Shown: positions 474 to 34,436, numbered from the stretch's first letter. The stretch: 64,000 nucleotides of DNA from Patescibacteria group bacterium (GCA_040388095.1 JAZKCM010000001.1:125820-189819), one strand, 5' to 3'. The notes: generated from the sequence alone by a model not told the origin. Numbers and translations: made by a program.

Positions 474-545
474 GCGCGATTAGCTCAGTGGTAGAGCGAC
501 CCCTTGACGTGGGGTAGGCCGGGGGTTCAATCCCCTCATCGCGCA
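474..545 (+). tRNA. tRNA-Val (anticodon GAC)
   Basis: Hand-folded cloverleaf: acceptor GCGCGAT/ATCGCGC, D arm GCTC-AGTGGTA-GAGC, anticodon arm ACCCC-TTGACGT-GGGGT, T arm GGGGG-TTCAATC-CCCTC, discriminator A. No encoded CCA. Confidence 0.9.
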
Positions 546-690
546 CAAGTGCAGAATAAAGGAAACTGCTTTTCTTTATTCGCCTTGTGCGAGGCGGAGC
601 CATATTTTTTCAGCAGAAAAAAATAGCGAGCCAGGGTCGTGAAAATTTTGCTTTGACGAAAGCAAAATTATTCCTGACCACAGTAAACAC
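546..690 (+). ncRNA. Candidate structured RNA fused to the tRNA-Val trailer (copy A of a 2-copy motif)
   Basis: Shares the blocks TTGTGCGAGGCGGAG, GAGCCAGGGTCGTG, AAAATT and TGACCACA with 33433-33545. The three intervening hairpins differ in sequence between copies but stay self-complementary. The frame has no protein-like conservation between copies. Confidence 0.4.
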
Positions 691-26010: not shown

Positions 26011-26096
26011 TGGTGCGTCGGGAAGGATTTGAACCTTCGTAGGCCGAAGCCGACAGATTTACAGTCTGTTGTAATTGACCACTCTACCACCGACGC
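26011..26096 (-). tRNA. tRNA-Tyr (anticodon GUA), with encoded CCA
   Basis: The rc reads GCGTCGGTGGTAGAGTGGTCAATTACAACAGACTGTAAATCTGTCGGCTTCGGCCTACGAAGGTTCAAATCCTTCCCGACGCACCA. It has a long variable arm. It is the only tRNA in the window with a genomic CCA. Confidence 0.9.
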
Positions 26097-32681: not shown

Positions 32682-33005
32682 ATGTCAGAACGTATAGAAA
32701 AAGTAAATAAATTGATAAAAGGATTGGTTGCAAATTTCTTAAATGAAGAAAGTACTTCTGCTTCTTTGATATCGGTCACTAGTATAGACACATCACCTGA
32801 CCTAAAAAAGGCGACAATATATTTGAGTATCTTACCAGAGAATCAAGAAAAGACTGCTCTTCTTTTCGCAAAAAGGAAACTTCCAGATATACGAGAACAT
32901 TTAAAGAAAAATATGGAAACAAAACATATTCCATTTTTGGAAGTAGCATTGGATATGGGAGAGAAAAATAGACAGAAAATTGACGAATTGCTTCGAGAAA
33001 AGTAA
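32682..33005 (+). CDS. rbfA: Ribosome-binding factor A
   Basis: Start at ATG 32682 (MSERIEKVNKLIKGLVANFL). KH-like RbfA pattern. Shows infB-rbfA synteny. Confidence 0.85.
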   Translation: MSERIEKVNKLIKGLVANFLNEESTSASLISVTSIDTSPDLKKATIYLSILPENQEKTALLFAKRKLPDIREHLKKNMETKHIPFLEVALDMGEKNRQKIDELLREK

Positions 33006-33017
33006 TATGTAAAAGTC

Positions 33018-33089
33018 GGCCTAGTCGCCAAGTGGTAAGGCAAAGATCTGCAAAATCTTTATACGACGGTTCGATTCCGTCCTAGGCCT
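33018..33089 (+). tRNA. tRNA-Cys (anticodon GCA)
   Basis: GGCCTAG-TC-GCC-AAGTGGTAA-GGC-A-AAGAT-CTGCAAA-ATCTT-TATAC-GACGG-TTCGATT-CCGTC-CTAGGCC-T. Confidence 0.9.
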
Positions 33090-33129
33090 CAGTTGTAATT
33101 TTAAAATTTAATATTATAATTTGTTCATT

Positions 33130-33211
33130 GCCCGGATGGCGGAATTGGTATACGCGCACGACTTAAAATCGTGTCTCGCAAGGGATGTGGGTTCGACCCC
33201 CACTCCGGGCA
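33130..33211 (+). tRNA. tRNA-Leu (anticodon UAA)
   Basis: Acceptor GCCCGGA/TCCGGGC, anticodon arm CACGA-CTTAAAA-TCGTG, long variable arm, T arm GTGGG-TTCGACC-CCCAC. Confidence 0.9.
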
Positions 33212-33246
33212 CAAAAATCAATTTTGATTTTTAAAGAATTTAAGAA

Positions 33247-33359
33247 GTTTGCACCCATAAACTTTTGGTAAATAATAGTAAAGTTTGCACCCATAAACTT
33301 TTGGTAAATAATAGTAAAGTTTGCACCCATAACTGTTTTGGTAAATAATAGTAAAGTTT
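33247..33359 (+). repeat. Tandem 36-37 bp repeat (3 full units) that copies the upstream region plus the first ~12 nt of tRNA-Lys
   Basis: Units start at 33247, 33283 and 33319: gtttgcacccataaacttttggtaaataatagtaaa, with the third unit showing ..aactgtttt... A fourth start at 33356 runs into the real tRNA-Lys (gcacccataactcagctgg). Confidence 0.9.
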
Positions 33360-33432
33360 GCACCCATAACTCAGCTGGTAGAGTAGCTCCCTCTTAAGGA
33401 GAATGTCGCAGGTTCGATCCCTGCTGGGTGCA
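33360..33432 (+). tRNA. tRNA-Lys (anticodon CUU)
   Basis: Acceptor GCACCCA/TGGGTGC, D arm ACTC-AGCTGGTA-GAGT, anticodon loop CTCTTAA, T arm GCAGG-TTCGATC-CCTGC. Confidence 0.9.
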
Positions 33433-33545
33433 CAAATTAAAAAGTTTACGGGGTAAAGTTTTTAATTTGTGCAAGGCGGAGGCACGACGGTGCCGAGCCG
33501 GGGTCGCGTAAAAATTCAGTAGAATTTTATATGTGACCACAATTG
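33433..33545 (+). ncRNA. Candidate structured RNA fused to the tRNA-Lys trailer (copy B of a 2-copy motif)
   Basis: Contains the blocks TTGTGCAAGGCGGAG, GAGCCGGGGTCGCG, AAAATT and TGACCACA, plus three hairpins (CACAAATTAAAAAGTTTAC/GTAAAGTTTTTAATTTGTG, GGCAC/GTGCC, AAAATTC/GAATTTT). Homologous to 546-690. Confidence 0.4.
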
Positions 33546-33561
33546 CACAGAAAAATAAATC

Positions 33562-33643
33562 GCTGGAGTGGCGGAATTGGTATACGCGCTAGTCTTAGGA
33601 ACTAGTACCGCAAGGTTTGAGGGTTCGAGTCCCTCCTCCAGCA
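33562..33643 (+). tRNA. tRNA-Leu (anticodon UAG)
   Basis: Acceptor GCTGGAG/CTCCAGC, anticodon arm CTAGT-CTTAGGA-ACTAG, long variable arm, T arm GAGGG-TTCGAGT-CCCTC. Confidence 0.9.
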
Positions 33644-33657
33644 CATTAAATAAGTAC

Positions 33658-33686
33658 TTGACTTTTAAAGTCATATATGCTATACT
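33658..33686 (+). promoter_or_regulatory. Near-consensus sigma70-type promoter (TTGACT-N17-TATACT)
   Basis: The -35 TTGACT is at 33658-33663, followed by a 17 nt spacer and the -10 TATACT at 33681-33686. The ATG at 33693 lies about 7 nt downstream of the -10, so the mRNA may be leaderless. Confidence 0.5.
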
Positions 33687-33692
33687 TTATGT

Positions 33693-34436
33693 ATGATGAA
33701 TAAAATACAAAACAAAAAAATAATTTTAACCTTATCTCTACTAGTTATTTTAGGCACAACAGTACTTATCGCCCCACAGAAAGCGAGTGCTCTCAATGCC
33801 TCTTATAACATAGAAACTGCAGGTTCAAGTACACAATCAAATACAAATAATAATTACAATAATAACCAAAATGTTACTTATTATAACGATACTACAAATT
33901 ACAATACTACACCTATTATCTATTCTATTAGCCCAAACAGTGCTGTATCAGGAAATAATACAGTCGTAGCGACTATCACTGGTGCAAACTTTACACCAGG
34001 ATCTACAGCAAGATTTAACGGTGCTGATAAAGAAACAAGATATTATGATTCTAGACACCTCGGAATGGTTCTCTCTCCTATCGATCTTGATGGAAAAGGA
34101 ACTTATTTTGTAACAGTCTATAATCCTTCAAATGGAAGTATTTCAAATGGAGTATCATTTACACTTAACAAAACAGTAGCTACTTCTTCAGGAAGTGTTA
34201 CAAAAAAGGTAACGAAAAGTACTACATCTACAGTAGCAAAAGCAAAAACATCATCTACAAGTACTTCTAATAATTCAAATGCTTTAAGTGCAAATGCATT
34301 ATCTGGATCAAATGGATTCTTTCCATCAAGTCTTATAGAATGGTTATTGCTCGCAATTCTTATCTTCCTAGTCGTCATATTGGTTCGTAAGACATATATG
34401 AGTCACGAAGAACACGCACCACTCAAACATGCTTAA
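33693..34436 (+). CDS. Secreted IPT/TIG-domain protein with C-terminal membrane anchor
   Basis: Signal peptide ending APQKASA, an Asn-rich linker, an Ig-like IPT/TIG-type segment (PIIYSISPNSAVSGNNTVVATITGANFTPGSTARFNG...VTVYNPSNGSISNGVSFTL), a Ser/Thr-rich stalk, and a C-terminal TM (LLLAILIFLVVILV). Confidence 0.6.
   Translation: MMNKIQNKKIILTLSLLVILGTTVLIAPQKASALNASYNIETAGSSTQSNTNNNYNNNQNVTYYNDTTNYNTTPIIYSISPNSAVSGNNTVVATITGANFTPGSTARFNGADKETRYYDSRHLGMVLSPIDLDGKGTYFVTVYNPSNGSISNGVSFTLNKTVATSSGSVTKKVTKSTTSTVAKAKTSSTSTSNNSNALSANALSGSNGFFPSSLIEWLLLAILIFLVVILVRKTYMSHEEHAPLKHA

Follow-up and report, generated by a model that had tools for sequence, protein, structure and literature searches.

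A recurrent folded RNA element behind tRNA genes of Patescibacteria

What kind of RNA lies between two neighbouring tRNA genes of a Patescibacteria group bacterium, and how did it come to be there? We analysed a window of 64,000 nucleotides (by which we mean the whole stretch, GCA_040388095.1 JAZKCM010000001.1:125820-189819) in which tRNA-Lys(CUU), at 33360..33433 on the + strand (end at 33432/3; ARAGORN, Rfam and flank analysis), is followed by tRNA-Leu(UAG) at 33562..33644 on the same strand (end at 33643/4; ARAGORN and Rfam). The 129-nt spacer between the two genes folds at −54.4 kcal/mol, with z = −8.6 relative to shuffles. An initial annotation had described here copy B of a tRNA-trailer RNA motif, and both its placement between these two genes by ARAGORN and Rfam and its sequence agree with that description. 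The surrounding cluster proved smaller than described, as both programs count four tRNA genes (Cys, Leu-UAA, Lys-CUU and Leu-UAG) instead of five, and the next tRNA is nearer than the roughly 15 nt originally given: TGACCAC occupies 33534-40, and 11 nt separate CACAG from the next tRNA.

Three helices in a tRNA spacer

A promoter scan found no promoter-like site between tRNA-Lys and tRNA-Leu(UAG), and a scan of the + strand over 32950-33720, which contains copy B, found no terminator-like site; copy B therefore most likely sits within a dicistronic tRNA precursor. That it would be excised from a polycistronic precursor by tRNA-processing enzymes, as had been proposed, is a reasonable reading of its location on the tRNA strand with no promoter-like site between the tRNAs. 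Just upstream of tRNA-Lys and extending into it, 3.4 tandem copies of a 36-bp unit occupy 33245-33369, each unit carrying a promoter-like TTTGCA-17-AATAAT and the first ~10 nt of tRNA-Lys (GCACCCATAA).

The whole unit of copy B spans 33429-33542 on the + strand (fold and covariance model) and consists of three helices joined by AGGCGGAG and GAGCCGGGGTCGCG and followed by TGACCACAATTGCACAG; helices, linkers and 3′ sequence are as first described, by sequence and fold. The first helix, H1, is a 45-nt hairpin (33429..33473, + strand; fold) with a GGG loop at 33450-52. Its 5′ arm starts in the tRNA, with U70 (33429), G71, C72 and A73 followed by C A A A, and its 3′ end is an 'anti-tRNA arm', UUUGUGCA (33466-33473), which pairs with the U70-A73 and CAAA side. 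As its H1 opens at tRNA nucleotide 70, the unit has its 5′ border within the tRNA; the extent of 33426-33545 given earlier holds as a rough span, with the true start at 33429 and the end near 33542. Linker A33474 and module P2 come next (33474..33499, + strand; fold and covariation). In P2, GGC (33475-77) pairs with GCC (33497-99), an internal loop is formed by GGA (33478-80) and GA (33495-96), and hairpin H2 (33481-33494) carries a GACG tetraloop at 33486-89. A junction, x-G (G33500 and G33501; 33500..33501, + strand; mutual information and triple counts), leads to P3/H3 (33502..33538, + strand; fold and covariation), at whose base GGUCG (33502-06) pairs with UGACC (33534-38), including the wobble G33506·U33534, and whose H3 part has a bulged A33529 and an AGUA loop at 33518-21. 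The unit closes with the tail ACAA (33539..33542, + strand), the same letters as the tRNA flank A73-C-A-A, and C33538 plus this tail can pair with arm positions 33467-33471 in a candidate closing stem of 5 bp, P0. Beyond the tail, the hexamer TGCACA (33545..33550, + strand; sequence) exactly repeats the tRNA-Lys 3′ end (33429-33434), and the tRNA 5′ end, once freed, is its partner in the minimum-energy fold. Such a repeat of the tRNA terminal hexamer was rejected as a family feature, as it occurs in 2 of 103 copies, which is the chance level.

The other copy in the window, copy A (542..682, + strand; pattern, fold and covariance model), is a long form behind tRNA-Val(GAC) (474-545). Its parts, all on the + strand, are H1 (542-591), P2 (593-595 / 630-632, with GGA at 596-598 and GA at 628-629), H2 (599-627, with an AGCA loop), x = A633, P3/H3 (635-679, with a GACG loop) and the tail ACA (680-682). 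Copies A and B follow the same plan and have in common just the junction nucleotides; the helices of copy A are long and A/U-rich, and its apical loops are swapped relative to copy B, with AGCA on H2 and GACG on H3. The linker pattern AGGCGGAG...GAGCCRGGGTCGYG matches exactly two sites in the window, 592-641 and 33474-33508, and 0 of 100 shuffles; under a covariance model of the family the two copies reach 85 and 57 bits, and the next best site in the window 10 bits. An ORF resembling tsaD begins at 705, 3′ of copy A, and this Val-GAC > element > tsaD synteny recurs at two other loci (L049 and L083).

Searches of known families returned nothing that resembles this structure. At the gathering threshold, Rfam 15 reports just 11 tRNAs in the whole window, and ARAGORN finds the flanking tRNAs alone around copy B. 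At E ≤ 10, Rfam gave chance-level matches to unrelated families around copy B and across L074, a locus with long forms, and none to tRNA or tRNA-like families (RF00005, CL00001) over 33434-33545 or in the L074 long forms. Neither copy B nor L074 matched Rfam ribozyme (hammerhead, twister, pistol, hatchet and HDV-like), group I/II intron, T-box, 6S, SRP or RNase P families. Literature searches by topic and by sequence strings yielded no description of the element, and the Patescibacteria group I intron paper and the TIGR-Tas paper concern unrelated matters. An intrinsic terminator was likewise rejected for copy B, whose H1 has no U-tract and is followed by a tRNA. More generally, a terminator, attenuator or antitermination element of the tRNA gene is the least probable explanation that we considered. 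It draws on the long-form H1, which often resembles an intrinsic terminator (A-tract, GC stem with CUGC loop, U-tract), yet such copies also occur in operons and rRNA spacers, the element lies between co-transcribed tRNAs and inside 16S-23S spacers, the scan of the + strand around copy B gave no terminator-like site, as noted above, and the conserved core is downstream of H1 and so cannot control it.

A family with a shared core

Copy B genuinely belongs to a very large family of folded RNAs that appears to be undescribed, and more than 250 copies were retrieved from Patescibacteria genomes and metagenomes. The comparative search for the linkers near tRNA genes that the initial annotation had called for was run as a strict three-block pattern on one-genome-per-species contigs. 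This first scan found at least 118 stretches and, among the matches listed, 107 in Patescibacteria MAGs, that is, at least 107 Patescibacteria loci at one genome per species, from Paceibacteria/Parcubacteria, Nomura-, Kaiser-, Adler- and Taylorbacteria and RAAC4_OD1_1. Throughout, estimates of copy number, phyletic range and the proportion of tRNA genes occupied are rough, as the scans are pattern-based and the figures apply among the matches listed. Eleven pattern matches outside Patescibacteria (Actinomycetota, Chloroflexia and others) fall in GC-rich coding DNA and were discarded; 7 lie below threshold and 4 score at most 26 bits, versus 40-105 bits for real copies. Viral contigs contain 0 matches to the family, and a phage origin was set aside. 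The covariance model, built from the retrieved copies, detected 151 copies in 100 sources.

Covariation across these copies supports the fold in detail. In the first alignment, 98.4% of cells are paired and double changes occur in 22 of 23 pairs; pairing falls to ~36% in a control in which the 3′ partner is slid by 1-3 columns, and 94.8% of cells are paired in an independent metagenome set. Even the 'invariant' linkers are broken compensatorily in ~45 of the 151 copies, with GGC:GCC replaced by GCC:GGC or GAC:GUC and GGUC:GACC by GGCC:GGCC, and the middle pair of GNC/GNC covaries (G:C 111, C:G 22, A:U 7). G·U combinations outnumber A·C by 237 to 14 in family pairs, so the structure is read as RNA on the tRNA strand and the reverse strand is ruled out; H1 alone gives no strand bias. 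With hundreds of copies elsewhere, different helices and compensatory changes, this is a recurrent tRNA-trailer motif and not a recent segmental duplication, the outcome that would have undone the original proposal.

More than the linkers is conserved, contrary to what had first been noted: the P3 base GGUCG/UGACC with its conserved G·U wobble, the bulged A, the ACA tail (134, 128 and 109 of 150 copies at its three positions) and one G(A/G)CG tetraloop per copy, carried on H3 in the long form or on H2 in the short form, are kept across the family. Among unpaired positions, conservation covers G-G-A / G-A in P2, the G that precedes P3, the bulged A and the A-C-A that follows P3. In P2, GA faces GA beside a Watson-Crick stem of 3 bp, which resembles the non-bulged strand of a K-turn; a K-turn was rejected because the columns, GNC-G-GA-G opposite C-GA-GNC, give a bulge of 1 nt (G) instead of 3 nt. 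By mutual information and triple counts, G33500 (x) covaries with C33507 (y) and G33533 (w). These positions (633/640/674 in copy A) take the combinations (G,C,G), (A,U,C), (G,A,G) and (C,G,C), the junction nucleotide x being Watson-Crick to a base within P3 that is itself opposite the third base; the triple may be a base triple or an alternative fold, and no secondary-structure model explains it.

So much conservation raises the question of whether, in extension of the first proposal, the excised RNA of 110-130 nt acts in trans, as a putative stable small RNA or RNP component made together with certain tRNAs, with the GGA/GA loop, the G(A/G)CG tetraloop and the invariant P3 base as candidate protein- or RNA-binding sites. 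The conserved unpaired nucleotides and the invariant helix do exceed folding needs, every copy has its one tetraloop, and the multi-copy tandem arrays are reminiscent of sponge or decoy RNAs; in MoMuLV RNA, loop-loop dimerisation proceeds through GACG tetraloops. We nonetheless hold a trans-acting RNA to be doubtful, as the tetraloop covaries with no part of the element (a kissing interaction with GUCG of P3 was rejected on this ground) and as the complementarity between arm and tRNA and the repeat of the tRNA 3′ half, both described below, would be left unexplained.

Resident copies evolve in place. Paceibacterota MAGs share synteny with the window, at a nucleotide identity of 70-77%, and five syntenic orthologues of copy B show differences at 8 of 19 scored pairs, 7 of which are changed on both sides, with 0 of 95 cells unpaired. 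Compensatory changes of this kind argue that resident copies stay folded over long times and that their structure is kept by selection, as that of a dead relic would not be.

The genomic surroundings are recurrent in some respects and diverse in others. From the end of the tRNA gene to the start of the core there are 24 nt (short form) or ~47 nt (long form), and the host tRNAs include Arg, Lys, Val, Ala, Ile, Leu, Glu and others. tmRNA genes (...GGGTTCGATTCCCGCCATCTCCA) also precede the element (L139, L155, L160, L173, L182, L210 and L236), and copies lie behind tRNA-Ile or tRNA-Ala in 16S-23S spacers (L050 1-1455, L086 4720-7405). In L086 no tRNA was found in the interval from the 16S gene to the element; one that contains an intron is a possibility there. 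The arrangement Lys-CTT > element > Leu-TAG occurs in 7 genomes, and other recurrent positions are Val-CAC > element > Pro-CGG, Arg-TCG > element > cca and Val-GAC > element > tsaD. A gene identified by eye as that of the CCA-adding enzyme starts 6-27 nt after the Arg(TCG) element in both short and long forms (L016 (4251-5996, − strand), L017, L030, L036, L067, L071 and L080). Counted together, the 3′ neighbours are 55 co-directional ORFs, 30 convergent ORFs, 22 tRNAs and 21 further copies, and the downstream ORFs are too diverse (89 clusters) for a conserved partner gene. Downstream proteins were named by eye from sequence, not by profile search; on this basis 20 representative downstream sequences contain housekeeping genes, for example cca, tsaD, murA and uppS, and no integrase, transposase or reverse transcriptase beside the cores. 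By estimate from the fetched loci, the element follows one fifth to one third of the tRNA genes in many Patescibacteria, at roughly 10 copies of 110-130 nt per genome. We rejected a processing stem that would join the 5′ leader of the tRNA to the tail of the motif, as UGUGG-type words are not enriched upstream of motif-bearing tRNAs.

Arm, border and repeat at the tRNA 3′ end

What ties the element to its tRNA is the arm. Among 94 tRNA-adjacent copies, it pairs exactly with nucleotides 70-72 and A73 in 75, plus the following CA, and the discriminator is A in 91. Since it pairs nucleotides 70-73 of its own host tRNA, the arm covaries with the tRNA. It is also complementary to C-A-C-A-A after P3, which yields the candidate stem P0 and with it a predicted three-way junction of the form P0-3 nt-P2-2 nt-P3. 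In type 1 copies, to which copy B belongs, P0 would comprise 4-5 bp resting mostly on conserved UGUG/CACA; the mean contiguous pairing is 5.16, versus 4.49 ± 0.09 in permuted data, with tetramers that are mostly conserved, and a single position covaries weakly (Fisher p = 0.017). In a second subtype, type 2, the mean is 6.3 contiguous pairs versus 4.6 ± 0.13 permuted, and the stem often reaches 7-14 bp. By these comparisons, support for P0 appears weak in type 1 and strong in type 2. Tail position +3 was rejected as a copy of the H1 5′ arm, being mostly A regardless, with weak covariation.

An arm with two mutually exclusive partners is what a purely host-serving cis element might use: the arm would transiently sequester the tRNA 3′ end, through acceptor nucleotides 70-73 or, in type 2, the T-arm, and release it once the tail is transcribed, thereby timing or ordering RNase P, RNase Z and CCA addition, or protecting the downstream RNA, and duplications would be incidental. 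The uniform architecture with its 3-nt invasion of the tRNA in 75 of 94 copies, compensatory evolution in place among orthologues, positions conserved across lineages and inside rRNA and tRNA operons, and cca and tsaD directly downstream in several genomes all speak for a host role of this sort, which we regard as a tentative possibility. It accords less well with carriage by just about one fifth to one third of tRNA genes, with tandem arrays and decayed copies, with the filled/empty polymorphism and its perfect 19-bp repeat described below, or with the 30 of ~130 copies that face a convergent gene, which means that no downstream target is required; nor would a simple timing hairpin give a reason for the invariant P2/P3 core.

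The border at which the arm pairs is itself distinctive. Both borders of the unit read helix-A|CA, as do tRNA genes without the element. In the window, 10 of 11 tRNA genes carry N73-C-A without CCA (for example at 545-547, 33432-33434 and 33643-33645); in tRNA-Lys(CUU), flank analysis places A73 at 33432, then C33433 and A33434, with CCA not encoded. The exception in the window is tRNA-Tyr (26011-26096). Related genomes have C after N73 in 146 of 161 tRNA genes without the element, mostly as C-A, which suggests that the lineage has an unusual and uniform tRNA 3′-end signal, N73-C-A. RNase Z cleaves after N73 of CCA-less precursors. Because the A|CA border is common to tRNA genes without the element, we infer that a common trans-acting 3′ processing enzyme acts at both element borders.

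Type 2 copies extend the relationship with the tRNA. Their arm, ...GGNNGAAUCGAA, is complementary to the T-loop and the 3′ strand of the T-stem, a metagenome scan found at least 120 loci, and the type 1 covariance model scores these loci at 28-95 bits. P3, whose 3′ strand was left out of the search pattern, again reads GGUCG/UGACC, with the G·U in 92 of 103 copies. Directly after P3, the tRNA's own 3′ half is repeated: 75 of 96 copies have an exact repeat of at least 9 nt, which begins 17 nt ahead of N73 (nucleotide 56/57) in 49 of those 75 and ends at +1 to +3, and the arm pairs with the downstream repeat copy over 7-14 bp in about half of all copies. The upstream tRNA is always complete. Often CCA is kept downstream and CA stands in the functional upstream copy, as at L028, L041, L138, L149 and L236 (in L236 the upstream copy is the tmRNA gene); other downstream tRNA 3′ halves are decayed, and some units form tandem arrays. 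The direct repeat measures ~18 nt in type 2 versus 2-4 nt in type 1, and in copy B the repeat of the tRNA 3′ segment is just CACA. Some units are preceded by a small hairpin (..CUGUAAGG..) that is not a tRNA (L016 5880-5960 (− strand), L163, L168, L174, L209 and L217). The hairpin CUGUAAGG is joined to GAUUCC... tRNA-3′-half fragments at the same T-loop point, and these units may represent a second kind of fragment or element.

Another explanation is a self-cleaving ribozyme or an intron-like sequence that would cut itself out at its borders or, in type 2, between nucleotide 56 and the CCA-bearing downstream half, which could then complete the tRNA. Small ribozymes typically combine a conserved junction with helices that vary, the G·U pair in P3 is invariant, and the tmRNA T-loop is a known site of group I introns (PMC11915505). 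Such self-removal is nevertheless improbable, given no ribozyme or intron family match at E ≤ 10, an upstream tRNA that never needs completing, downstream halves that are often decayed, and an A|CA border that recurs in element-free tRNA genes and so points to an enzyme acting in trans.

One locus captures the element as a polymorphism. Behind tRNA-Leu(UAG) in L022, a 134-bp element lies between perfect 19-bp repeats (GAGTCCCTCCTCCAGCACA), and the empty site with the same downstream promoter is found in our window (33644 onward) and in L068. This filled and empty pair shows that new copies are acquired at the tRNA 3′ end through insertion or duplication; in principle, a precise deletion from one repeat to the other could account for the pair in place of insertion. 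The stable 'by-product' RNA envisaged at first undersells the element, which behaves as an insertion element under structural selection.

It is possible, though we would not bet on it, that the family constitutes a new non-coding mobile class, in which the folded RNA is itself active, its arm recognizes the 3′ end of the tRNA or tmRNA and it copies itself there. Copying might proceed via an RNA intermediate carrying tRNA nucleotides 57-75, so that CCA becomes CA, and copies would persist because the three-way-junction fold returns the tRNA end for normal processing. Observations that weigh against a spreading element, here and in the explanation favoured below, are that no mobility enzyme is seen beside the cores and the genes downstream are diverse housekeeping genes (both by eye), that matches in viral contigs number 0, and that the Lys-CTT/Leu-TAG, Arg-TCG/cca and Val-GAC/tsaD positions are conserved across distant lineages, which fits host function as well as, or better than, mobility.

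Known counterparts and a proposed explanation

Several known systems share parts of this behaviour. Williams is said to have described in 2002 how genomic islands and prophages integrate into tRNA and tmRNA genes at the T-loop. Like such islands, the element targets tRNA and tmRNA genes, is flanked (in type 2 only) by a direct repeat from the T-loop to the gene end, and brings a new 3′ half with its insert so that the old half stays downstream. Unlike them, it measures ~130-250 bp, is non-coding and has no integrase recognised nearby, with no ORF within the 130-250 bp between type 2 repeats; a P3 strand, not an inverted integrase core site, lies to the left of the downstream repeat, and the insert is a covarying RNA structure on the tRNA strand. 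The Islander database of such islands is cited in PMC11915505.

Small mobile and palindromic repeats offer a second comparison, among them Correia, RPE and REP/BIME elements and the PATEs of IS200/IS605. The element resembles these in being small, non-coding, multi-copy, structured, co-transcribed and present in tandem arrays. It differs in that copies share just junction nucleotides, with helices fully diverged and compensatory, in lacking terminal inverted repeats, in its strict tRNA 3′-end target, in having one arm matched to each host tRNA and in the structural selection on its orthologues. A MITE or DNA transposon was rejected, as H1, the left end, is not conserved, the repeat length varies and the window copies share junctions alone.

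Two groups of RNAs provide functional parallels. T-box leaders and RNase P RNA L15 pair with the tRNA 3′ end, and a strand of the element likewise pairs with the 3′-terminal nucleotides of a specific tRNA; it does so in cis, however, with unprocessed N70-A73-C-A or the T-loop and not with NCCA, and unlike a T-box it has no specifier loop, expression platform or Rfam match. RNAs that RNase P or RNase Z releases from tRNA precursors include E. coli 3′ETS-leuZ, mascRNA from MALAT1 and plant tRNA-snoRNA dicistrons. Copy B shares with them a position in a transcribed tRNA-operon spacer, which is the same in 7 genomes, and the element shares a trailer or spacer location, likely release by tRNA enzymes and a border that imitates a tRNA 3′ end. 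It differs from them in having no cloverleaf and a conserved multi-helix structure, in pairing with its own tRNA and in duplicating. The plant tRNA-snoRNA dicistrons are cited in PMC12045711.

We favour, with a probability of roughly 0.55, a non-coding, duplicatively spreading RNA element that is co-transcribed at tRNA 3′ ends, copy B being an old, fixed copy of this Patescibacteria tRNA/tmRNA 3′-end element family. In outline, the element would be transcribed together with the upstream tRNA, and during synthesis its arm would pair with the 3′ end of that tRNA; the arm could switch to the tail as soon as this is complete (P0), closing the three-way junction and returning the acceptor end. An RNase Z-type endonuclease at A|CA and RNase P at the next tRNA would then free the tRNA, and the same cuts would release an RNA of ~110 nt (about 33433-33539). 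The conserved core may keep the insertion harmless or useful, or may have some function in trans, and new copies, made by insertion or duplication, repeat tRNA nucleotides 57 to ~74 and leave the old CCA-bearing half downstream. What tempers this explanation is that type 1 P0 consists mostly of two conserved tetramers, and that we infer the arm switch and the RNase Z/P release. The favoured explanation overlaps with the host switch and with the trans-acting RNA, and the three are not mutually exclusive.

A folded RNA thus stands behind many tRNA and tmRNA genes and in rRNA spacers of Patescibacteria, with no description found in the databases and literature searched. These organisms have minimal genomes, in which ~10 copies of 110-130 nt amount to a substantial investment or burden. 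The family opens to study how tRNA 3′ ends are made in a phylum with N73-C-A genes instead of CCA, whether a trailer can gate tRNA maturation in cis, and how a non-coding RNA structure spreads to dozens of tRNA genes. Patescibacteria genomes would be better annotated with a covariance model of the family, which would also account for many 'tRNA fragments' beside their tRNA genes.
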